From a virus, in IMG/VR virus record IMGVR_UViG_2856349417_000002, positions 1-64,000 of that record: a DNA stretch of 64,000 nt, one strand, 5' to 3'. The number at the start of each line of letters is the position of its first letter. Positions within the stretch are counted from its first letter, which is position 1. Made by a program: the position numbers and the translations under genes. The notes under the pieces were generated by a model. The model had not been told where the DNA came from and did no database searches. It saw nothing but the letters and a program-made list of their open reading frames with translations. Positions 35,086 through 48,464 of this stretch are shown here, one piece after another.

Positions 35086-35361
35086 ATGGATTTGACCAAT
35101 CCACAGGGCAAAACGAGGCGCTATCGCGTCATCTGGGAGATCGACTTCGAAGGCGAAGGTGATCCCGAAGCAGCGGCCCGTTGGGCTTGGGCCACCCTGC
35201 GCAAGCCGGAATCGACCGCGAACGTGTTCACCGTCATCCACGAGAACGGCGAGCAAGTGAAGGTCGATTTCCAGGAAATCGACGATTTTGGCGCGCTGGA
35301 GGAAATTGCGAAGCTTACGGATGCCGAGGAAGACGAGACCGAACTGGAGGCGGCGGAGTGA
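35086..35361 (+). CDS. Small acidic protein (91 aa) coupled to the C5 methyltransferase
   Basis: ATG at 35086 follows GAGGAG. Acidic C-terminus DFQEIDDFGALEEIAKLTDAEEDETELEAAE. The stop overlaps the methyltransferase GTG (GTGA). Confidence 0.6.
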   Translation: MDLTNPQGKTRRYRVIWEIDFEGEGDPEAAARWAWATLRKPESTANVFTVIHENGEQVKVDFQEIDDFGALEEIAKLTDAEEDETELEAAE

Positions 35362-37577
35362 ACCAGCTCTCATCCGTCGTCGAATATCGGCATTTCCATC
35401 TTTTCTGCGGCCTCGGCGGCGGAGCGAAGGGTTTCAACAAAGGCCACGCGCGGGTCGGCAGCCTCCAGGCAAGATGGCGCTGCATCGGCGGTGTCGACAA
35501 CGACCCGGCCGCCATCCGCGATTTCAGTCGAGCGGCAGACGTTCAAGGCACAGTTCTTGATATGTTCTCACGCGAGCAGTTCGTGGCGTTCCATGGGCGC
35601 GAGCCTGCCGCTGACTGGCGCGAAGCGACCCCGGATGATATCCGCCGCGCCGCACATGGCGAGCGCCCGCACGCGGTGTTTCTCTCGGCACCATGCAAGG
35701 GGTTTTCGGGCCTTCTGCCAGAAGCTTCGAGCGCGACCGACAAGTATCAGGCCCTGAATGGTCTGACGCTCCGAGGCGTCTGGCTGATGCTGGAGGCATG
35801 GAAGGATGATCCGCCCGAGCTGATCGTCTTCGAGAACGTGCCTCGGATCGCCAAGCGCGGCCGCAAGCTGCTCGACCAGATCGTCGCGCTGCTCCGCTCC
35901 TATGGCTACGCGGTGCGCGAGACGACCCACGATTGCGGCGAGCTGGGCGGGCTCGGCCAGAGCCGCAAGCGTTTCCTGCTGGTGGCGCGCCACGAGGCGA
36001 AGGTGCCGCCCTTCCTCTACGAGCCAGAGAAGCGGCGCCTTCGCGGCGTCGGCGAGATCCTCGAAAAACTGCCGCGCCCGGGCGACATGAACGCCGGCCC
36101 GATGCACCGTATGCCGGCGCTGCAATGGAAAACATGGGTTCGCCTCGCCTTCGTCGAGGCCGGCTCGGACTGGCGTTCGCTCAACAAGCTGACGGTCGAG
36201 AATGGGATGCTACGGGATTTCGGGATTCTCCCCGACGTCGAGTGGCAAGCCGGCGTGCTCGGCGTGCATCGCTGGACCGATACCAGCGGCGTTGTCGCCG
36301 GTCGATCGACCCCGACCAATGGCTCCTTTTCAGTCGCCGATCCACGAGTGCCCAAGGCATCGGAAGATTTCAAGGGCCTTCGCGTCGTCGATTGGGGGCA
36401 TGAGGCCGGCACAATCACGACGCAGCGCAGCCCGGGATCGAGCGCGCAGAGCGTCGCCGACCCGCGAGTTGATGGTCATGAGAGATCGGTGCAGCTCGGC
36501 GTGCGCCGATGGGACCAGCCGGCGGCCGTGGTGAAGGGCGACGTTTCGGTCGGCTCGGGTCCCTACGCCGTCTCCGACCCGCGCATGGAAGGCAAGCCGC
36601 GCTTCAACAATACGTTCCGCATCGTGCCATGGGCGGCGAATGCGCCGGCCGTCGCCGGTCCTGGTGGCCCAGCTGGCGGCTTGGCCGTCGCCGATCCGCG
36701 TCCCTCGCAGCGCGACGACTACAAGCAGACGAAATACCGCGTCACTGGCCTCGACGAAGCTGCAGGCGCTGTCATTGGCGCGTCGACTACCGGCAACGGC
36801 GCCTATGCCGTAGCAGACCCGGCAATGAATTGGGGCGAAAACGCCCATGGCACCAAGCTTGCGGTGAAGGGCTGGGATGAGCCCGCCAACGTCGTCTCTG
36901 GTGCCAGGATCCTGTCGGGCGGCGGAGCGGTGGCCGACCCGCGCGTCGAGGCGGACCGTTCATCCACTTACGGCGTGCGGAAATGGGATGAGCCGACCGG
37001 CGTGGTGCAGGGCGAGAGCTTTCCGACGAATGGCGCATTCTCGGTCGCGGATCCTCGGCCGGTCGGGCTCAATGCGAACCGGGACCACTACAAGACCGGC
37101 GGTCACTATGGCGTCGTGCCTTGGGACGAGACAGGCTACGCCGTTCCAGGCTTCGCGAAATATGATCGCGGCCATTGGTCCGTTGCCGATCCGCGCGACA
37201 CCGATGCCGAGCCTCTGTTCGAACTGCCAAAGCCGGAAGATCGTCTAGTTGCAGTCATCCGTGCCCTCGACAACACATGGCACCGGCCGTTCACGACGTT
37301 GGAACTAGCGGCGCTCCAGAGCCTCGTCGATCCGGACGAGCTGGACGGCTTCAAACTCGACGGCCAGTCCGATTCCGCCTGGCGCGAGCGGATCGGCAAC
37401 GCCGTGCCGCCTCATGCCGCAGCGGCAATCGCCAGCGTCATGGCGACGACCCTTCTCCTGGCGATGACGGGCGAGACCTTCATGCTCAGCAGTCAACCTA
37501 TCTGGGTGCGCGATGTTGCGGTCGCTCTTGCCGTCGACGATCGCGGCAATATCCCCGACGAGGATATTTCTGCTTGA
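35358..37577 (+). CDS. DNA (cytosine-5) methyltransferase with a ~450-aa repeat-built variable region (739 aa)
   Basis: Motifs: I FHLFCGLGGG, IV SAPCKGFSG, VI FENVPR, VIII QSRKRFLLVA, X GNAVPP. GTG at 35358 lies 7 nt after GGAGG. Confidence 0.9.
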   Translation: MNQLSSVVEYRHFHLFCGLGGGAKGFNKGHARVGSLQARWRCIGGVDNDPAAIRDFSRAADVQGTVLDMFSREQFVAFHGREPAADWREATPDDIRRAAHGERPHAVFLSAPCKGFSGLLPEASSATDKYQALNGLTLRGVWLMLEAWKDDPPELIVFENVPRIAKRGRKLLDQIVALLRSYGYAVRETTHDCGELGGLGQSRKRFLLVARHEAKVPPFLYEPEKRRLRGVGEILEKLPRPGDMNAGPMHRMPALQWKTWVRLAFVEAGSDWRSLNKLTVENGMLRDFGILPDVEWQAGVLGVHRWTDTSGVVAGRSTPTNGSFSVADPRVPKASEDFKGLRVVDWGHEAGTITTQRSPGSSAQSVADPRVDGHERSVQLGVRRWDQPAAVVKGDVSVGSGPYAVSDPRMEGKPRFNNTFRIVPWAANAPAVAGPGGPAGGLAVADPRPSQRDDYKQTKYRVTGLDEAAGAVIGASTTGNGAYAVADPAMNWGENAHGTKLAVKGWDEPANVVSGARILSGGGAVADPRVEADRSSTYGVRKWDEPTGVVQGESFPTNGAFSVADPRPVGLNANRDHYKTGGHYGVVPWDETGYAVPGFAKYDRGHWSVADPRDTDAEPLFELPKPEDRLVAVIRALDNTWHRPFTTLELAALQSLVDPDELDGFKLDGQSDSAWRERIGNAVPPHAAAAIASVMATTLLLAMTGETFMLSSQPIWVRDVAVALAVDDRGNIPDEDISA
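36258..37196 (+). repeat. Eight tandem 114-138-bp coding modules, each ending in V-[AS]-D-P-[RA]
   Basis: The VADPR-type motifs start at 36333, 36453, 36570, 36687, 36810, 36930, 37044 and 37182. Modules share W-D-x-P/A...V.G...G.[FY][SA]VADPR. Confidence 0.85.
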
Positions 37578-39105: not shown

Positions 39106-39381
39106 ATGAAGCTTCCAGGCATCGAAGTATTGGCCGCCGTTGCTACCGCCGTCTCGCCGCGCGGCGCCTATATCAATGATCAGGTCCAGCGCGCTCACGC
39201 TAAGGCGGTGAAGGCTGGCGCAATCGGGCATCCGCCGTCGACGGGCTTGGTCCTTCGGCGGCTTCGCTCACTCGAAAAGCGCGGGCTGATTGAGTGCGTC
39301 GGCGGCCCGGACGGCTATTACGGGTTCGAGTGGCGCATCACTGACGCGGGCCGCGCCGAGCTTGCTCGGAGGGCGTCATGA
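39106..39381 (+). CDS. Winged-helix DNA-binding protein (91 aa)
   Basis: LVLRRLRSLEKRGLIECVGGPDGYYGFEWRITDAGR is a MarR/PadR-like wHTH pattern. Confidence 0.6.
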   Translation: MKLPGIEVLAAVATAVSPRGAYINDQVQRAHAKAVKAGAIGHPPSTGLVLRRLRSLEKRGLIECVGGPDGYYGFEWRITDAGRAELARRAS

Positions 39382-40100
39382 CAGACCGTCCTATTTTATT
39401 TTCCAGCGCAATGGTGCGCGCGCTGCTCGCCAGCACGAAGTCGCAGACGCGGCGCGTGCTGAAGCCGCAGCCGCCATCATGGGCGACATTTTGCCAACAG
39501 CCGACGATGCTGAACGCACTTCATCAATGGGTGCCGTCAGGTCTTTGGGCATGGAGCGAGGAAGAGAAGAAACCGCCTAGCAAGCTCAGGCGCTGGCCGG
39601 TCGACGCCGCCGGCGATCACTATTGGCTGAACCCTCGCTATGCGGTCGGCGATCGCCTCTATGTCCGTGAAGAATACAGCTTCTGCCATTCGTGGGCCGG
39701 CGTCCCTCCGCGTGACGTAATCCCAGCCGCTCCCGTGTGGTGCTGGGCCGACGGCAATCCGTCCGATGGCGATTGGACTAAGCCGAAGCCTGGCATGCAC
39801 ATGCCGCGCTGGGCGTCGCGCCTCACGCTGACAGTGACCGATGTTCGCGTCCAGCAGCTGCAGGCGATCAGCGAGACCGATGCGATTGCTGAAGGTTGTC
39901 CCGTGTCGACAGTGCCAGGCACCATCGGGCACCCGCTCTGTCAGGTCGGCTTCAACGAAATGGGAACGCCGATATTCTGGTATCGGAAGCTCTGGAACAG
40001 CCTCAATGAGTCGCGCGGCTTCGGCTGGAACGCCAATCCCTGGGTGATCGCCGTCTCTTTCACAGTCGAGCGCTGCAACATCGATGCGGTGCCCGCATGA
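39378..40100 (+). CDS. ASCH/PUA-like phage protein (240 aa)
   Basis: The N-terminus ILFSSAMVRALLASTKSQTRRVLK, plus MPRWASRLTLTVTDVRVQQLQAISETDAIAEG, is typical of this phage family. Confidence 0.7.
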   Translation: MTDRPILFSSAMVRALLASTKSQTRRVLKPQPPSWATFCQQPTMLNALHQWVPSGLWAWSEEEKKPPSKLRRWPVDAAGDHYWLNPRYAVGDRLYVREEYSFCHSWAGVPPRDVIPAAPVWCWADGNPSDGDWTKPKPGMHMPRWASRLTLTVTDVRVQQLQAISETDAIAEGCPVSTVPGTIGHPLCQVGFNEMGTPIFWYRKLWNSLNESRGFGWNANPWVIAVSFTVERCNIDAVPA

Positions 40101-40202: not shown

Positions 40203-40709
40203 ATGGAACAGACGCAACTAAGCGATCTCCAACTGGCGGCTCACACGGCTCGAGTTTGCCGGGAGGCACTGCTCTTGGATGAAGCGGCGCGCGTAGCCAT
40301 GCGCGATCCGGCAAAGGCTAGGGAATTATTGGGGGAAATCGAGAAAACCGGCCTTCTGTCATATTTGCGAGACGGCGTGGTCATGCTCATCCACAAAACC
40401 CTTCTGGACGGCAGAGTGCAGGAGTCCGACATCCGCGACGAGTTTTACAAGAACCTGGAGCGCTACCTGCCTGGCGCGCATCAGACGACCGTGGAAATTA
40501 TTCGCAGGAACATCCCAGATGGCTTCGTTGAATGGAAAAGGCGCGAATGCCCGGTAGAGGTCAAGCTCACCGTCTTCGACGATAGAGCGCTGAAGCAGCT
40601 CCATCGGTACATGACCGTCTACGATGCCGAGATGGGAATTGCCGTCGCGCCAAAGCTCAAGTGCGAACTTCCGGCCAATATCCACTTTGTCGAGGTGCAT
40701 GCACCATGA
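40203..40709 (+). CDS. PD-(D/E)xK-like small protein (168 aa)
   Basis: ATG at 40203 lies 7 nt after GGAG. The C-terminus IPDGFVEWKRRECPVEVKL fits the D...E-x-K pattern. GC is lower than in the neighbours. Confidence 0.55.
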   Translation: MEQTQLSDLQLAAHTARVCREALLLDEAARVAMRDPAKARELLGEIEKTGLLSYLRDGVVMLIHKTLLDGRVQESDIRDEFYKNLERYLPGAHQTTVEIIRRNIPDGFVEWKRRECPVEVKLTVFDDRALKQLHRYMTVYDAEMGIAVAPKLKCELPANIHFVEVHAP

Positions 40710-41464
40710 CACAGCTGGCACCCAACTATATCCACGGCCCGACGCCGGTCGTGTTCGCACGAAACGGCGAGGTTTATGCGACGAGCCGCGACGTGGCGGC
40801 TTACTTCGAAAAAAACCACCGCGACGTCACCCGCGCGATCGACAATCTGCTCGATCAGAAGCCGAGCCTAGCCCTGCGCCATTTTGCGCAGGGGGTCTAT
40901 CACCTTCCGGAGACAGGTTCGCAGCAGCATCGCTACTTCGATATGAACCGCCAAGGCTTCACTCTGCTTGGCATGGGATTCACTGGAGAGAAGGCGCTCG
41001 ATTTCAAGCTCGCCTATATGGAGGCTTTCGACCGGATGGAGGCGGCGCTGAAAAAAGCTTCCCCGCCGCTCGATCTCAATGACCCTGCAACCCTTCGCGG
41101 ATTGCTCGCCTCCTATGCTGACAAGGCGCTGGAACTCCAGAAAGAGGTCGACCAGCTACGCCCCTCGCAAATCGCGCTGGAGCGCATTTCGGTGGCCGAC
41201 GGCTCGCTCTGTATAACGGATGCTGCAAAAGCCCTCCAGATGCAGCCCAAGGAACTGTTCGCCCGGTTGCAGCGGAACGGCTGGATCTACAAGCGGCCGG
41301 GCTCGGACCATTATCTCGGCTATCAGTCGAGGACGCAGGCGGGATTGCTGGAGCACAAGGTGACGACGGTTCTCCGCGGCGACGGGACGGAAAAGGTCAC
41401 GGAGCAGGTCCGCATCACGCCGAAGGGGTTGACGAAGATCGCTGAGCTGATGGCGCGGCATTGA
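40706..41464 (+). CDS. Antirepressor: Rha-type N-domain + KilAC/ANT-type C-domain
   Basis: VVFARNGEVYATSRDVAAYFEKNHRDVTRAIDNL (Rha-type) and ITDAAKALQMQPKELFARLQRNGWIYKR (KilAC-type). ATGA overlap with the upstream gene. Confidence 0.8.
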   Translation: MTQLAPNYIHGPTPVVFARNGEVYATSRDVAAYFEKNHRDVTRAIDNLLDQKPSLALRHFAQGVYHLPETGSQQHRYFDMNRQGFTLLGMGFTGEKALDFKLAYMEAFDRMEAALKKASPPLDLNDPATLRGLLASYADKALELQKEVDQLRPSQIALERISVADGSLCITDAAKALQMQPKELFARLQRNGWIYKRPGSDHYLGYQSRTQAGLLEHKVTTVLRGDGTEKVTEQVRITPKGLTKIAELMARH

Positions 41465-41657
41465 GCTCGGCCGCAAGTTTCTCGCACCGCTTGCATCGCG
41501 TTGACGATCCTTCTTCGAACAGATAGCCGGCCGGCGCGTCTTGGGCGCCGCAGAGCGAATGCGCAATTCCGGCACCGGCGCGCATGAAGTAGTGCGCCTT
41601 GCCTGGCGTCTTGGCCGCCCAGCCCTCGCGGAAACCCTTCAATCGCTCTCCGGTCAT
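41415..41657 (-). CDS. Hypothetical Cys-containing protein (80 aa)
   Basis: Track ORF and the last gene of the minus-strand early operon. Its 3' end overlaps the convergent antirepressor gene by 50 nt. Confidence 0.5.
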   Translation of the reverse strand: MTGERLKGFREGWAAKTPGKAHYFMRAGAGIAHSLCGAQDAPAGYLFEEGSSTRCKRCEKLAAELNAAPSAQRSSSTPSA

Positions 41658-41935
41658 GTCACTATGCGCTCCACCGGGATCATCCGGCCCTTGCGGAAGA
41701 TGCGGTTCGCCTCTTCCTTGGCGCGGCCAGCGACGTCACCCTCGCGCCTCATATGGCCATTCATCCACCGAAGCAGATGGAGGGTAACGGTTTTCTGAGC
41801 CTCAAGTTCAGTCAGGAAGACCATCGGCTTGCCGCCATCGGCCAGCACTGGCTCGGCCTGGCCGTCCTCGGCAAAGCGGAGCATGGCTTGGAAGCCGGCC
41901 CGGACGCGAACCGTGTATCCTTGAAAGCAATTCAT
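41654..41935 (-). CDS. Hypothetical protein (93 aa)
   Basis: Track ORF with ATGA overlaps at both ends. Confidence 0.55.
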   Translation of the reverse strand: MNCFQGYTVRVRAGFQAMLRFAEDGQAEPVLADGGKPMVFLTELEAQKTVTLHLLRWMNGHMRREGDVAGRAKEEANRIFRKGRMIPVERIVT

Positions 41936-42822
41936 GCGAACATCCCTGTCTGCTCGTCGTAGCGCTCACGCGTCTTTGCCGATCGGCGATAATCGGAGAA
42001 CGGCGTTTTCCGCCAGATGGCGGGCGAGTTCGCCCAGCGGGCGACGTCGCGCAGCAGCTGCTCGTTCCAGTCGAATCGCGGATGAGGCCGGCGCTCCAGC
42101 GAGTTGAGCTTCATGAAAGGCTGCACGTGCGGCTCGCCGCCCCAAGCGATCACCTCGCGGATCCGATCCATGCAGGCTGCGAACGGCTCATTGCCGATCA
42201 GAACATAGACACGCTTCCGGCGAGGCGAGACATCGGCCAGCATGTGCATGACGCGCTCGACGTAAGGGCGCTCGGCCGCGTCATCATAGGCGAAGCGCCA
42301 CGGGCCGCGATTGATGGCTTGCCAGCGGGCGTAAACATCGTCGTCAAAGGTTCGCGGCTCAAAACCGCTGTTGGCGTCCAGCAGCGGCACCCCGGCGGCC
42401 TGGTAGCGCGCAATGATGTGATCCTGGAAGTCTGCCGGCAAAGCCGAGAGGTTGTTGTCGCAGAGCACCGGGCGCACCGGGAAGTCAGGCAGCAGCGTGA
42501 AAGCCTTGCCTTCCATCTTCGGGACGATGCAGAACCAGCAGCCGACCGGGCATCCTCGGCTCGCGATCGTCGCCACGGGATTGTGTCGGGCGACAGCATC
42601 CGGGATATCGCCGCCGATCTCAGCGACATCAGCGAGGAACTTCTTGCGCGTGAACACGCCCGGACCACCGACGCGGACCTTCATGCCCTCGGCGCGATAC
42701 CAGCAGGCGCGGGAATAGGCCTCACCCAGCCGCCATGTGAACACGACCGAGATATAGGCGGTGTCGCCCTCAGTCCATTCGGCGAGGCCGCCAGACCAGC
42801 GGCCGAGGTCGTAGCCGCTCAT
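41932..42822 (-). CDS. Radical SAM-like protein (296 aa)
   Basis: ASRGCPVGCWFC gives the CX3CX2C cluster motif in the SRGCP..C.FC context. ATG at 42822 overlaps the upstream stop (ATGA). Confidence 0.7.
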   Translation of the reverse strand: MSGYDLGRWSGGLAEWTEGDTAYISVVFTWRLGEAYSRACWYRAEGMKVRVGGPGVFTRKKFLADVAEIGGDIPDAVARHNPVATIASRGCPVGCWFCIVPKMEGKAFTLLPDFPVRPVLCDNNLSALPADFQDHIIARYQAAGVPLLDANSGFEPRTFDDDVYARWQAINRGPWRFAYDDAAERPYVERVMHMLADVSPRRKRVYVLIGNEPFAACMDRIREVIAWGGEPHVQPFMKLNSLERRPHPRFDWNEQLLRDVARWANSPAIWRKTPFSDYRRSAKTRERYDEQTGMFA

Positions 42823-43664
42823 GCCGCCTCCCCGCTGCAATGAAGGCCGCACTCGACGTCGTGTTCCATGCTGTCGTCTAGGCTGTCGGCAAGAGCCTCC
42901 CAGAGCATGGGCGTGAGGCGAACCTGCTCGACGAGGTCGGCAACGCTATCCCGCTTGTCGAACTGGGCGCCGATCCGATTCTCTTCGTCCAACCACCAGG
43001 TCTGTACGCCTGGATGGTCGCGAATGATGCGTTTCCGAATACCCTTTCCCTTCTGAAAGCAGAGATCGCAATTTCCCTCCCAAGGCTCCAGGTCGAGGAA
43101 AAATGGTTGGTGCTCCCAAAAGGCAGACACATCGGATTTCCTGATCTTGGCCCTGGAAAGCGGGTAGGACATGCGGCGGCCGTCTTTCGCAGCGCGATCG
43201 AGGCCGCGAAATATCCGCATGCCTTCGTCATAGCGAAGGCCCACGATTTCCTCGTAAGAGCCGGGCTCCAGCCCGAGCAGGTGACGCATGAGTGCGAATA
43301 TCGGGCGGACCTTGAGATATTCCGTGCACCAGCGCTCCGCGCCGTTGGGAAGGCGCTGCTTTTTGCTGATCAACTCATGGAAAGGTTCGCCGTCGCGGCT
43401 CGCAGAGTTGAGGCCTACGCGCTCATAGCCGATGCCGCTGTTGCGCCATTCGATCCAGTATATTTCGACGCCCCAGCGCGAGCCGCACTCGTGCACGAAG
43501 CGAAGCGTTTCCTCGCGTTCCTTGCCGGTGTTGGCAAAGGCCACGACGACATTATCTGGAAGCTTGCCGCCGTGCGCATGGACGATCTGGTGCAGCATGA
43601 ATGCCGAAGTCCGCCCGCCGGAGAACGAGATCAGAGCCGGCCCTTCGATCAGATACGGGTTCAA
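42819..43664 (-). CDS. PP-loop ATP pyrophosphatase of the PAPS-reductase family (281 aa)
   Basis: Contains SFSGGRTS (PP-loop), ERWCTEYLKVRP and GLRYDEG, plus C-terminal Cys pairs CDLC and ECGLHC. TTG start follows GGGAG and overlaps the upstream stop (TTGA). Confidence 0.85.
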   Translation of the reverse strand: MNPYLIEGPALISFSGGRTSAFMLHQIVHAHGGKLPDNVVVAFANTGKEREETLRFVHECGSRWGVEIYWIEWRNSGIGYERVGLNSASRDGEPFHELISKKQRLPNGAERWCTEYLKVRPIFALMRHLLGLEPGSYEEIVGLRYDEGMRIFRGLDRAAKDGRRMSYPLSRAKIRKSDVSAFWEHQPFFLDLEPWEGNCDLCFQKGKGIRKRIIRDHPGVQTWWLDEENRIGAQFDKRDSVADLVEQVRLTPMLWEALADSLDDSMEHDVECGLHCSGEAA

Positions 43665-43903
43665 CGCATCATCTCCCGCAGGATCCGCCGCACATCGGCG
43701 AGCTTCATGTAGATCGAATTGTCAGAGCACCGAGGCGAGCAGGAAACCGCCGTGGTGCGGGTCTTGCCGGAAAGTGAGATGACGAGCTTGCCGTGCGGAC
43801 CGCGCCCGCGCTCGAGCCGGCACGTGCCGCCGGCCGCCTCGACGATCTCCTTCGCCTCGCCGATCAGATCGCGGTGGAACTTGCGGCTGATCGCGCCCAT
43901 CAC
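43661..43903 (-). CDS. Small protein with weak HicA/YcfA-like pattern (80 aa)
   Basis: Contains GGTCRLERGRGPHGKLVISLSGK...VRRILREM. GTG at 43903 overlaps the methyltransferase stop (GTGA). Confidence 0.5.
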   Translation of the reverse strand: MMGAISRKFHRDLIGEAKEIVEAAGGTCRLERGRGPHGKLVISLSGKTRTTAVSCSPRCSDNSIYMKLADVRRILREMMR

Positions 43904-44985
43904 TGGAAATCCTTCCAGTCGATGCGGTTGAGAACGGTCGGACCGGCATAGAGGCCGGCTTCATTCTGCTCCCATATGAACCAGGCGGTGTTCATGCGGC
44001 TGGTCGCTTCGTTGCCGTCCCAGCCGTCGCGATGCATCATCGGCAGGCGACGGGTGAAGACGTGGACTCTCGCCGGCTTGCACTCGTCCATGGCGTAGTT
44101 GCGGTCCGGATCGTCGAAGCCGCAGAGGAAATTGAGGTTGAGCAGCAGCGCCATCTTGCGTGGCCTGTGCACGCGTAGCGCATGCGCGACAAAGGCGTTG
44201 AGCGCCTGGCCATAGGGCGGATTGGTGGCGATGTCGGCGCCGACGAGCCACGGCTCAGCCGTCAGAAAATCGCTGACGCGCTGGACCTCGCCGAACTGCG
44301 TGGTGGTTCCGTAGTCGACCAGGTCGGCGATCTCTACCTCATAGCCGGCGTCCTCCATGAGCTTCGACATCGCGCCCTTGCCGCAGGCCGGCTCCTTCAC
44401 GATGTTCGAGAAGCTTTCTAGCGCCAACAGGGTGCGCGTCGCTTCCAGCGGCGTCTCATAGAGGTTGTTGCCGCGCTCGGCTGCGCTGGCGCTATCGGTG
44501 CCGATTGCGGCGCGAAGGTTCGCCCGCGTCGGTTCGAGCCCTTCCTCGAGGCGAACCGCGATGGCGCGCTCGACGATGCCAGGCTTTTTCCGTTCCGCCT
44601 CGGCGAGCTGGCGCGCCTCATGGATCTGCTTGGCTGAAAGGCCGGCTTCCGCCTGAGTGAAAGTCTTCCCGTCTGGAATAGTTTTCGGTCGCCCCTTCGA
44701 AGCTTCGCCATTCCGCTGTGCCGCATCATATTCATCGGCGAGCCGGATCTTGGCCTTTGCCTCGATCAGGAGTGCTTCACCCTGCATCCGGCGCGATTTG
44801 TTGATGAGTTGCTCGCCAGCACGGAAGCGGGCCGCATAGGTGGCGGCTGACTTTGCCTGGTCATAAGCCATGGCGGCCAGCAGATGCGCCGCCTGGATAT
44901 CGCCGTCATCGAAAAGCGCTCGAGCGCGCTCCACGACCTGGGCAATGCTGGAGGTGTCGAGAGTGGCGACCTCGTTCATGCTCAC
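43900..44985 (-). CDS. DNA N6-adenine methyltransferase (361 aa)
   Basis: Contains YETP, EPACGKG (AdoMet motif I) and ATNPPYG (motif IV). Long helical N-terminal region. Confidence 0.85.
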   Translation of the reverse strand: MSMNEVATLDTSSIAQVVERARALFDDGDIQAAHLLAAMAYDQAKSAATYAARFRAGEQLINKSRRMQGEALLIEAKAKIRLADEYDAAQRNGEASKGRPKTIPDGKTFTQAEAGLSAKQIHEARQLAEAERKKPGIVERAIAVRLEEGLEPTRANLRAAIGTDSASAAERGNNLYETPLEATRTLLALESFSNIVKEPACGKGAMSKLMEDAGYEVEIADLVDYGTTTQFGEVQRVSDFLTAEPWLVGADIATNPPYGQALNAFVAHALRVHRPRKMALLLNLNFLCGFDDPDRNYAMDECKPARVHVFTRRLPMMHRDGWDGNEATSRMNTAWFIWEQNEAGLYAGPTVLNRIDWKDFQ

Positions 44986-45320
44986 ACTGCTCCCGGCTTC
45001 GGGAAAAAGCAGAAGCGGTACGCGCCCTCGTTCGAAAGGCAGATGTGGTAGGAGTTGTCGATCGGCTGGCGCCGGGCGCTATAGGGAACGATCCCCGAAT
45101 AGCCATGCGTCTTGAGCCTCGGGTGTGCGCCGGCCGGGAGGTTGACGTGGTAGCCGTCCGGCTCCTCGGTGACGTAGCGATCGTCGATCGGGGCGCAATC
45201 GCCCGTGGGCGAGGTTGCAGCGCTGTTGCAGCATTCTGGCGGGTAGCTGACGCCGCTCGGCGCGTGGTGCGCACTGGCGGCCGCCGTCGAAAGCAGCAGG
45301 ATGAGAACCGCGCCCCTCAT
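44982..45320 (-). CDS. Secreted Cys-rich protein (112 aa)
   Basis: Signal peptide MRGAVLILLLSTAAASA/HH. ATG at 45320 overlaps the upstream stop (ATGA). Confidence 0.6.
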   Translation of the reverse strand: MRGAVLILLLSTAAASAHHAPSGVSYPPECCNSAATSPTGDCAPIDDRYVTEEPDGYHVNLPAGAHPRLKTHGYSGIVPYSARRQPIDNSYHICLSNEGAYRFCFFPKPGAV

Positions 45321-45676
45321 GGCTTTTGGTCCAGCGCAGCGAGCGCGGCGCGGCACGACGCGGAAAGGCGCTGATCGGCAGCGATGTCCTTCTCGGCCCG
45401 GGCGAGCTCCTCGGCCCGTCGTGCGTCGAGCGCTGCGATCTCATCCTGGTGCCGCTTCAGCTCGGCGGCGCGGTCCGCCTCGATCTTGTCGAGGTTCTCC
45501 CGAAGCAGCTTCTGCGCATCTGCGGCGCGCTGATCGTATTTGGCGATGGCCTTGCGATGGGCCGCAGAGAGGCGCTCAAGCTCCGTTTCGGGCTTCAATG
45601 GTGCGAATGGCACCACATTGTTGAGCGAGGCGTTGAGATGCTCGGCGATGTCCTTCAATGCGGCGGCGTCATCCAT
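45317..45676 (-). CDS. Coiled-coil protein (119 aa)
   Basis: Track ORF. Confidence 0.6.
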   Translation of the reverse strand: MDDAAALKDIAEHLNASLNNVVPFAPLKPETELERLSAAHRKAIAKYDQRAADAQKLLRENLDKIEADRAAELKRHQDEIAALDARRAEELARAEKDIAADQRLSASCRAALAALDQKP

Positions 45677-46796: not shown

Positions 46797-47493
46797 TTGC
46801 CTGCTCCTGTTGCTCTTCCGCCTTCTCGCGCCGGCGGCGGGCTTCCTCGCGCTTGCGAGCCTTTTTTCGTTCCTCGATTTCTCTGACGGTGAGGCGCCGG
46901 AACGAACGGCTGGTGCGGACCAGGCCGAACTGCTTTTCAATGCCCTTGAGGATTTGCCCCAACACGAGCTGCTTGAGGTCGTGCATGGCCCTTCGATCGA
47001 AATCGATGCGATGCCGGTCCCAGATCCTGCCGCACTGCTCGAGCGAGAGCCCGGCGGCGCGCGCCATCACTGTGCGCTTCATGCGAAGCACGTCCTTGCC
47101 GGCGCGCCCCGCGATGACGAAGCGCATCAGGTCAAAGACGTCGACCATGCGCTCGATCGCCTGCTCGCTGGGCACCGACTTGACCGAGGTGCGATCGTAT
47201 TGCGGCATGCCGGCTTGCAGCCTCGCGACTTCGCGAGCGTAGGCGAGGTCGGCTGTGTCGCGCGTTCCAGGCATTACCGTGCCGACATGCGAGACCATAC
47301 GCAGATCATCGCGCGGCACGTTGCTGGCCGTTTCCATCGCATCGGAGAGAAGCAGCCACAGAAGATCGCGCGGCGACGGCAGTCCGTGCTTGCTGACGTT
47401 GAAGAACAGGAACTCGGCGTGGCGAAGGTGCTCGACGAGGCGGTCGATCCGCTTCTCGAGTTCCTTTGGCGTGTCGAGAAAAAGCTTGGTCAA
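46789..47493 (-). CDS. Hypothetical early protein (234 aa)
   Basis: Track ORF. TTG start overlaps the replication gene stop (TTGA). Basic C-terminal tail. Confidence 0.65.
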   Translation of the reverse strand: MTKLFLDTPKELEKRIDRLVEHLRHAEFLFFNVSKHGLPSPRDLLWLLLSDAMETASNVPRDDLRMVSHVGTVMPGTRDTADLAYAREVARLQAGMPQYDRTSVKSVPSEQAIERMVDVFDLMRFVIAGRAGKDVLRMKRTVMARAAGLSLEQCGRIWDRHRIDFDRRAMHDLKQLVLGQILKGIEKQFGLVRTSRSFRRLTVREIEERKKARKREEARRRREKAEEQQEQANG

Positions 47494-48464
47494 AGCAGCG
47501 AACCCCCAGCTGATCGCGAATCAGCAACCGATCCCGTTGCCGATGGTGCCAAATTGGTTACACGGCTGGCAAGCGGAAGATCTGCCGGCCACCGTGTTTT
47601 TGCGAGGACCAATTCGTCGGCCTCGCACTTGGCCGCCTTCGCCTCGCCGTGCTTAGCCCTGATGCACTCCAACCAAGGGCTCCATTCTGCCCGCCTCGGA
47701 TGAATGCGGTAATACCCGGCATGGTCCAACTCCGGGGCGCCGTAGACGATTTCGAACATCTGCGCCGATAGGTAAACTGAGAGCCTGGGAATTCGCTCTT
47801 TGCGGAGCCTGCAGTGCCGGAGGAATGCCGAGACGCAGTCGACTGCTCGCTGCCTCTTTTCAGGCGACAGGCTCACCAGTTCTCGCTCAGCCACATCTCG
47901 CTTGCCGAGTTGCTCCAGCGGCCAGGAGGAGACAATTTTATCCAAAAGACCATCTGTCCCCCCCGTGAGGGGGGCTAGGGGGGATTTTTGTTGAATAGGT
48001 TCTTTGTATGTGTCGGATTCTCCGTTAACCGGAAAACCAGTTGACGGATTTTCAGGAAGCGGCAACTCCGGTTCCTTATTATCAGGACGCGGACAGGCCG
48101 CTTCCTGCATATCAGGAGACGGCAGCGGGAGCAGCTGCGGCACAGCATCATCGTGGATGGTGTAGTTGTAGGAGCCGAAGCGCCCCTTGCTATCGGTGGC
48201 TTGCTCGCGGGTCAAATAGCCAGTCGTCTCCAGCTTCTGCAGGATCCGATAGACCTTGTCCCGGCCGATGCCGCCCTGAGTCTGCAAGTTCTTGACGTTG
48301 ACGTTCCAGTCGTGCGGCTTCGCCAGTAGATAGACCAGCACACCACGCTCCTCGAACGTCAGCCGCTCATCGCTTGCGACCTCATTCGGTATGATAGCGA
48401 AGTTATCCCGTCGCTTGCGGGTTACAATCGTCAACGTCGTCTCCCCGGGTGGCTGGAGAGGCAA
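47490..48464 (-). CDS. Replication initiator / replisome-organiser-like protein
   Basis: The N-terminal wHTH FAIIPNEVASDERLTFEERGVLVYLLAKPHDWNVNVKNLQTQGGIGRDKVYRILQKLETTGYL is followed by a Pro/Glu linker and then a C-domain. The start is ambiguous (TTG at 48464 or a downstream TTG). Confidence 0.75.
   Translation of the reverse strand: MPLQPPGETTLTIVTRKRRDNFAIIPNEVASDERLTFEERGVLVYLLAKPHDWNVNVKNLQTQGGIGRDKVYRILQKLETTGYLTREQATDSKGRFGSYNYTIHDDAVPQLLPLPSPDMQEAACPRPDNKEPELPLPENPSTGFPVNGESDTYKEPIQQKSPLAPLTGGTDGLLDKIVSSWPLEQLGKRDVAERELVSLSPEKRQRAVDCVSAFLRHCRLRKERIPRLSVYLSAQMFEIVYGAPELDHAGYYRIHPRRAEWSPWLECIRAKHGEAKAAKCEADELVLAKTRWPADLPLASRVTNLAPSATGSVADSRSAGGSLL
47545..47561. promoter_or_regulatory. 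Operator-like palindrome GGTGCCA-aat-TGGTTAC inside the replication gene 3' end
   Basis: Read directly. Encodes VTNLAP on the minus strand. Confidence 0.4.
47958..48140. repeat. Candidate origin inside the initiator gene: C7/G6/G6 tracts, an AT-rich block, and three 12-nt cores spaced exactly 30 bp
   Basis: C7 at 47958-47964 with G6 at 47969-47974 and 47978-47983. AT-rich segment at 47984-48015. The cores (A/T)TCAGGAnnCGG start at 48051, 48081 and 48111. Units 1 and 2 match at 21 of 30 positions. Confidence 0.4.

Follow-up and report, generated by a model that had tools for sequence, protein, structure and literature searches.

The locus described here raises the question of whether adjacent enzyme genes in a phage operon work together or only share a location. 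It occupies positions 41415 to 45320 of a 64,000-nucleotide stretch of viral DNA (positions 1 to 64,000 of IMG/VR record IMGVR_UViG_2856349417_000002, hereafter the window), and it contains the genes of a PP-loop ATPase of the 3'-phosphoadenosine-5'-phosphosulfate (PAPS) reductase family, a radical S-adenosylmethionine (rSAM) protein and an N6-adenine (m6A) methyltransferase. The initial annotation, made from the sequence alone, chained these genes into a candidate undescribed module, in which the PP-loop and rSAM proteins would act as a pair on phage DNA or RNA. We established the identities of the three genes, their folds, conserved motifs and cassette boundaries, and found that the PP-loop and rSAM genes are not co-conserved. 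With a probability of roughly 0.78, the three genes are separate accessory cassettes that assort independently within a mosaic early operon, and do not form a two-enzyme DNA-modification module.

The comparison that carries this reading covers 129 rSAM loci, including 79 from IMG/VR (51-89% identity, 6-kb flanks) and 47 from bacterial genomes (8-kb flanks), the latter scanned with a profile from a 10-sequence subset of a 40-sequence rSAM alignment. It also includes 80 PP-loop loci from IMG/VR (homologues at 40-65% identity) and 80 control loci, each with a homologue of the nearby methyltransferase at its centre. The window PP-loop protein had no significant match in the 79 IMG/VR rSAM loci (tblastn, phmmer), and a strict PP-loop regular expression returned 0 matches. 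A first hidden Markov model (HMM) of the PP-loop protein, made from sequences of >60% identity, was too narrow and missed phrog_424 members such as the one in locus L067. The PAPS-family HMM was therefore broadened by 81 sequences and then by six confirmed open reading frames (ORFs), the last step leaving the count unchanged at six loci.

With the broadened model, a PAPS-like gene is found within 6-8 kb of the rSAM gene in 6 of 129 loci (L001, L067, L173, L189, L199 and L207), and all six were verified as phrog_424 or phrog_12882. Around 95% of the rSAM loci thus lack a nearby PAPS-like gene, and the rate equals the background given by the methyltransferase loci (3/80; Fisher p=1). In the reciprocal direction, the rSAM gene is absent from all 80 PP-loop loci (tblastn and HMM), as it is from the 80 control loci. 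In an independent survey, 4% of the caudoviral genomes had a PAPS-reductase gene (PMC13369170), and a base rate of about 4% for PAPS-like genes in such regions suffices to yield the PP-loop/rSAM pair of the window.

The boundaries of sequence homology give the same picture. Blastn homology to relatives is confined to 41932-42819 for the rSAM gene and runs from about 42822-42827 to 43661-43663 for the PP-loop gene, i.e., the cassette borders coincide with the gene ends. Clustering of neighbours revealed no conserved rSAM partner, as no neighbour family occurs in more than 15 loci, and neither the 150 top-ranking rSAM cluster representatives nor the 120 top-ranking PP-loop matches include a fusion of PP-loop and rSAM domains. 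The two families also differ in their distribution: NinC-like genes are found in lambda and in the 466 other phage records matched by tblastn with the PP-loop protein, whereas only 8 isolated-phage records contain the rSAM family. The initial annotation had itself listed a lack of co-conservation among the outcomes that would refute its proposal, and the result is that the pair is not co-conserved and that homology breaks at the gene borders; the dedicated PP-loop and rSAM module is thus not upheld.

The PP-loop protein was correctly placed among the PAPS-reductase-like enzymes, and within these it belongs to the NinC family. All motifs first noticed in it are present, i.e., SFSGGRTS (residue 13), RWCTEYLKVRP (111), GLRYDEG (142), CDLC (199) and ECGLHC (271), and the assignment is carried by its match to phrog_424 and by a fold like that of CysH, LarE and TtuA. 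The AlphaFold2 (AF2) model has a mean predicted local distance difference test score (pLDDT) of 82.5, and Foldseek retrieves CysH and adenosine-5'-phosphosulfate (APS) reductases as best matches, along with LarE, NcsA and TtuA. The SGGRTS loop, C113, C199-x2-C202 and E271-C272-G273...C276 show no variation in 25 close homologues. Lambda NinC is of the same family (29% identity over 75% of the length, E 8e-12, tblastn) and occupies the same niche downstream of the replication genes, but the alphaproteobacterial subfamily has its own set of invariant cysteines (C113, C199, C202, C272, C276) and an ECGLHC tail, unlike lambda NinC. Lambda ninC is a non-essential gene of the PAPS-reductase family (PMC10695390).

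In the PADLOC library of defence-system models, the best match of the PP-loop protein is SspD (residues 11-219), followed by weaker similarity to BrxP and DndC (0.005 for the latter), while the NCBIfam DndC model gives 12 against a cut-off of 290. The window protein has in common with SspD, DndC and BrxP a PP-loop and a Cys-rich C-terminal part. However, unlike SspD and DndC in phosphorothioation systems, its gene is a phage orphan. It alone matches any PADLOC model among the 10 proteins scanned between 39.4 and 45.7 kb, and none of these neighbours is an SspA/B/C or DndA/B/D/E partner. On sequence grounds, it is a relative of DndC and SspD and not an equivalog. Orphan "SspD" matches have similarly been described in Sinorhizobium prophages (PMC12429752).

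Direct sequence searches of the PDB with the PP-loop and rSAM proteins gave nothing useful, and profiles were required. The broader PP-loop family profile reaches a single solved structure by sequence, PDB 21fy chain C ("PptA", E 0.008), in which the PP-loop, xCTxxLK and NNCxxC elements are colinear. A closer match to PptA (1.7e-50) is the phrog_424 member of L067 (L067 1356-2099), 3.9 kb upstream of the rSAM orthologue there. PptA represents a distant subfamily with the degenerate loop FSCGAPSA, unlike the SGGRTS loop of the window protein.

The suggestion that the PP-loop protein acts on nucleic acid or counters a host defence is plausible given its likeness to SspD and a published phage phenotype. 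A two-gene vibriophage insert, including a fusion of a PAPS domain with a Dam methylase, leads to resistance to host Dnd (bioRxiv 10.1101/2021.05.05.442762), and this was the only functional study returned by literature searches for the function of NinC, phage PAPS reductase, PptA and the rSAM family. The anti-Dnd protein JSS1_004 is a kinase/shutoff protein and is unrelated. Our best guess is that the PP-loop protein would perform ATP-dependent sulfur chemistry on nucleic acid.

A competing explanation is that the PP-loop protein is a genuine PAPS or APS reductase, i.e., the product of an auxiliary metabolic gene for host sulfate assimilation that is unrelated to nucleic acids. This is the usual reading in databases, as in the NCBI name, and in the literature, where phage PAPS-reductase genes are interpreted as auxiliary genes of sulfur metabolism without experimental test (PMC13369170). 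The best structural matches agree with it, and so does the C-terminal tail: the window protein terminates in DVECGLHC (residues 269-276; window 42837-42860, minus strand) and CysH of E. coli and Vibrio in KRECGLHE, so that ECGLH is identical to the catalytic tail of these reductases. The protein thus has a CysH-type tail although its remainder is nearer to SspD than to CysH. Against a reductase stand the scores for Pfam PAPS_reduct (PF01507), which at 20.9 falls below the gathering cut-off of 22.5 and covers residues 11-69 only, and for NCBIfam CysH (15 against a cut-off of 154); homologues at 60-67% identity do have precomputed PF01507 matches. Furthermore, the SGGRTS loop is of the canonical ATP-pyrophosphatase type, while E. 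coli CysH has the degenerate loop SSSFG. The best match in the defence library is SspD, the gene lies in a neighbourhood of replication and DNA-methylase genes, and PAPS domain-Dam fusions exist that contribute to an anti-Dnd function. Taken together, we consider a metabolic PAPS reductase unlikely.

The second enzyme is a true radical-SAM protein according to its predicted fold. The CX3CX2C motif is found as claimed (ASRGCPVGCWFC, residue 87), numbered from the ATG at 42822, which is preferred as start over the GTG at 42852 because homology to relatives begins at 42822. The protein matches phrog_9298, whereas the Pfam model PF04055 scores 18.2 bits (cut-off 29.5) and covers residues 97-123 only. 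NCBIfam and Pfam thus recognise only the cluster motif, and do so below cut-off. The Pfam model does not capture so divergent a family, and assignment to the radical-SAM superfamily is therefore based on motif and fold. An AF2 model from the 40-sequence alignment reaches a pLDDT of 91.9, and Foldseek places AprD4 (1.2e-6) and MgmA (2.7e-5), two rSAM enzymes whose N-terminal domain is of the B12-binding type, at the top, followed by lipoyl synthase and lysine 2,3-aminomutase, with probabilities of 0.96-1.0. The AprD4 and MgmA alignments cover both a Rossmann-like N-domain and the rSAM core, with query-normalised template modelling (TM) scores of 0.54-0.60 at 12-13% identity. Compared with AprD4, a 1,2-diol dehydratase and not a methylase, and with the glutamine C-methylase MgmA, the N-domain is cut to about 85 residues and the whole protein is shorter (296 versus 417-454 aa). 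The relatives also act in other settings, as AprD4 and MgmA belong to antibiotic or coenzyme pathways while the window gene lies in a context of phage DNA metabolism.

Conservation within the rSAM family is strong and its distribution is wide. A large protein database contains 3467 homologues (E<=0.001) in 684 clusters at 50% identity, and homologues at 44-80% identity occur in viral contigs and prophages of Alphaproteobacteria, Dehalococcoidia, Bryobacteraceae, Brevibacillus and others. Across the 40 aligned homologues (25-87% identity), C91, C95, C98, D122, N124, R176 and D180 are invariant, and longer homologues give weak, sub-threshold matches to the B12-binding domain PF02310. Two homologues, P0141 and P0233, contain Hint/LAGLIDADG inteins, located inside CxxxCxxC (RGCPVNCSF/C...HN/CIVPRLEG) and just before the invariant WRFAFD, and these insertion sites mark both motifs as functional cores. 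In P0134 (355 aa), a Helicase_C domain is joined to the C-terminal two thirds of the rSAM protein, which is either a true fusion or an artefact of assembly or gene calling.

Only two fusions point to DNA as a possible substrate. One joins ParB_N to the rSAM protein (P0203) and the other joins it to a D12 (Dam) methylase (P0208), both being single database predictions. Because of these rare fusions and the conservation across phyla, we weakly infer that DNA or a nucleotide is the most likely substrate. It is possible, though we would not call it probable, that phrog_9298 represents a DNA- or nucleotide-directed rSAM enzyme of temperate phages, which, without need of its PP-loop neighbour, might either modify DNA in a new, radical-based way or counteract restriction. 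We know of no precedent for such an enzyme in temperate phages.

Alternatively, the rSAM gene may be a prophage-borne defence or exclusion gene, e.g., one for a viperin-like producer of modified nucleotides, and would then not modify the phage's own DNA. The gene is indeed mostly found in temperate phages and prophages of many phyla, and it behaves as a mobile single-gene cassette with no obligatory partner. However, the protein has no PADLOC match, its fold resembles rSAM enzymes with a B12-like domain rather than viperin, and its predicted fusion partners, ParB_N and Dam, are DNA-directed. The gene is also codon-overlapped within the early lytic operon and is not a separately transcribed moron. 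A defence role is therefore quite improbable, and a viperin-like assignment as such was rejected as it has neither profile nor fold support.

Cooperation of the two enzymes, e.g., adenylation by the PP-loop protein followed by radical insertion of sulfur or carbon, would create a new nucleic-acid modification beside m6A. Several observations favour it and thereby weigh against independent cassettes. In the window, the two genes lie side by side and their translation is coupled. L173 and L199 likewise have a PAPS-like gene as the nearest upstream neighbour of the rSAM orthologue, and L022 has a remnant of one; in L001, L067, L189 and L207 the distance is within 4 kb. Adjacency in four of the eight loci with both genes (the window, L173, L199 and L022) is somewhat above random placement, so that an optional or occasional partnership could exist. 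Moreover, the PP-loop genes found beside rSAM genes belong to mutually very divergent subfamilies, and therefore the two kinds of gene came together more than once. SAM-radical chemistry has also been claimed for DndC, a claim cited and doubted in PMC10853773 that would make a collaboration of PP-loop and rSAM enzymes chemically conceivable.

These points have to be set against the counts given above and against two loci in particular. In L022, 22 codons of a PP-loop N-terminus (MIMREINYCGISGGKDSTAVA, L022 3634-3700) are fused in frame to the rSAM gene and appear to be what is left of an upstream PAPS-like gene after its deletion, which suggests that the rSAM gene was retained though the PP-loop gene was lost. 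In the control locus L260, a PAPS-like gene comes directly after the methyltransferase gene, and it is an example of why adjacency is more likely a by-product of a common home, a short "nin-like" segment of the early operon, for both kinds of gene. In such operons, neither the adjacency of genes nor the overlap of their codons is evidence of shared function. The cooperation model is largely refuted by the lack of co-conservation, and we regard functional coupling of the PP-loop and rSAM genes as very unlikely. A 7-deazaguanine (QueC/QueE) reading was rejected for want of profile or fold support (Pfam, NCBIfam, Foldseek, PADLOC): neither protein matches the QueC/QueE models of Pfam and NCBIfam, the partner genes not having been sought across the window.

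The third enzyme, the methyltransferase, is of a characterised kind and an ordinary component of such phages. The m6A assignment made at first holds, based on phrog_799 and on 57% identity over 345 aa to Phi3LM21_p21, and the two motifs EPACGKG and NPPY are located at residues 198 and 255. HinfI protection has shown that both Phi3LM21_p21 and the related Phi2LM21_p21 methylate GANTC, which is also the target of the host CcrM, and CcrM-like genes are typical for the replication modules of alphaproteobacterial phages (PMC5537653). By its similarity to the tested enzyme, the window methyltransferase is probably GANTC-specific. It has the NPPY motif and the position in a replication module in common with the phage enzymes Phi2LM21_p21, Phi3LM21_p21 and that of vB_RleM_PPF1, but is shorter (361 aa compared with 452-599 aa).

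The three genes lie in a minus-strand early operon that is headed by the replication initiator and ends at 41415 (Table 1). All seven ORFs reported between 41415 and 45320 are present, and they are joined by 4-nt start/stop overlaps exactly as described: GTGA at 44985/44982 and 43903/43900, TTGA at 43664/43661, and ATGA at 42822/42819, 41935/41932 and 41657/41654. The chain does run from 45320 to 41415, but 45320 is not its upper limit, as an ATGA at 45320/45317 ties in the upstream ORF 45317-45676. Such runs of overlaps are the usual packing in phage operons; they show co-transcription and translational coupling, and not a common function.

The small ORFs of the chain add no conserved partner in the loci examined. 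A HicA/YcfA-like label had been given to the upstream 80-aa ORF and is not borne out by any profile match, neither at E<=0.1 in Pfam and NCBIfam nor at E<=0.01 in PHROGs and PADLOC. This ORF is absent beside PP-loop or rSAM homologues in the loci examined, and the 93-aa ORF is likewise not conserved beside rSAM homologues. The final gene of the chain converges with the Rha/Ant gene on the plus strand, with an overlap of 50 bp (41415-41464). A promoter and terminator scan of 40-50.5 kb, in which the signal was at the level of shuffled sequence, revealed no convincing terminator between these two genes.

Table 1. Features of the window discussed in the text (aa, amino acids; m5C, 5-methylcytosine; HTH, helix-turn-helix).
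Feature	Position	Strand	Evidence and remarks
m5C methylase, 798 aa, unusually large	35181-37577	+	PF00145, residues 73-282; phrog_32684, residues 70-305, 2.8e-111
Rha/Ant gene	40661-41464	+	Faces last gene of minus-strand chain
80-aa ORF, last of chain	41415-41657	-	No family match (Pfam, PHROG, NCBIfam, PADLOC); overlaps 3' end of Rha/Ant gene
93-aa ORF	41654-41935	-	No family match (same libraries)
Stand-alone radical-SAM enzyme, 296 aa, predicted shortened B12-binding-like N-domain	41932-42822	-	phrog_9298, 1.4e-16; AF2/Foldseek
NinC-family PP-loop protein (PAPS-reductase superfamily, SspD-like)	42819-43664	-	phrog_424, 1.9e-52; SspD, 2.2e-12
80-aa ORF	43661-43903	-	No family match (same libraries)
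CcrM-like N6-adenine DNA methyltransferase, 361 aa	43900-44985	-	phrog_799, 4.7e-91; EPACGKG, NPPY
Cys-rich small protein, signal-peptide-like N-terminus (MRGAVLILLLSTAAASA)	44982-45320	-	No family match; alternative longer GTG start at 45356
Replication initiator (HTH/DnaD-like)	47490-48464	-	PHROG replication-initiation families, 3e-15 and below; Pfam HTH_36 below cut-off

The window proteins are 100% identical to those of a 64.7-kb contig of Mesorhizobium sp. M4A.F.Ca.ET.090.04.2.1, and the window comes from a temperate phage or prophage of Mesorhizobium of about 65 kb. PHROG matches include a DNA ligase, tail protein, tape measure, portal, large terminase and integrase, and the window further contains the m5C methylase, the Rha/Ant regulator and the replication initiator; it has 0 tRNA genes. 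In the m5C methylase, the C-terminal ~500 residues are without family assignment. A 240-aa protein of phrog_874 is encoded at 39378-40100 on the plus strand. In L164, L170 and L180, a homologue of it is encoded about 1 kb or less from the rSAM gene, and in L176 at 3.3 kb. The family seen most often beside the rSAM gene, in 15 loci (e.g., L179 3181-4071) and at variable distance, is a Gp37/Gp68-like protein whose N-terminal part has a C-x5-C-x2-C motif. In the Phocaeicola phage locus L001, an annotated ASCH-domain gene adjoins the PAPS reductase gene.

Each of the three enzyme genes falls into a catalogued family (phrog_799, phrog_424 and phrog_9298), and NCBI already contains the identical proteins. 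For the rSAM family, the only catalogue description is "radical SAM domain protein". The substrates and chemistry proposed here are, for all three enzymes, what we infer. Under the favoured explanation, the region would correspond to the "nin-like" downstream section of a temperate Mesorhizobium phage's early replication operon, and the operon to a string of translationally coupled single-gene cassettes, each moving between phages alone. The CcrM-like enzyme would methylate GANTC on phage DNA, as its identity to the tested enzyme suggests. The PP-loop enzyme most likely acts like SspD, DndC or TtuA, i.e., it would use ATP to activate an oxygen of the nucleic acid and then pass on sulfur from its Cys-rich C-terminus (CxxC and ECGLHC tail), with a host cysteine desulfurase as the likely sulfur supply. 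The outcome might be a modified DNA or a blunted phosphorothioate-based defence, a role that we propose because of the family resemblance and the one published phage phenotype. The rSAM enzyme would stand alone, independent of all neighbours.

A new two-enzyme modification module would have been a genuine discovery, had the comparative data supported it. What the locus does reveal is two widespread phage families for which the literature searches returned no assigned function, i.e., NinC-type PP-loop enzymes with a CysH-like tail and a compact, very conserved rSAM family, both located where phages keep their DNA methylases. Of these, the rSAM family is a modest lead, and one that lends itself to nucleoside mass spectrometry and to assays of defence evasion.

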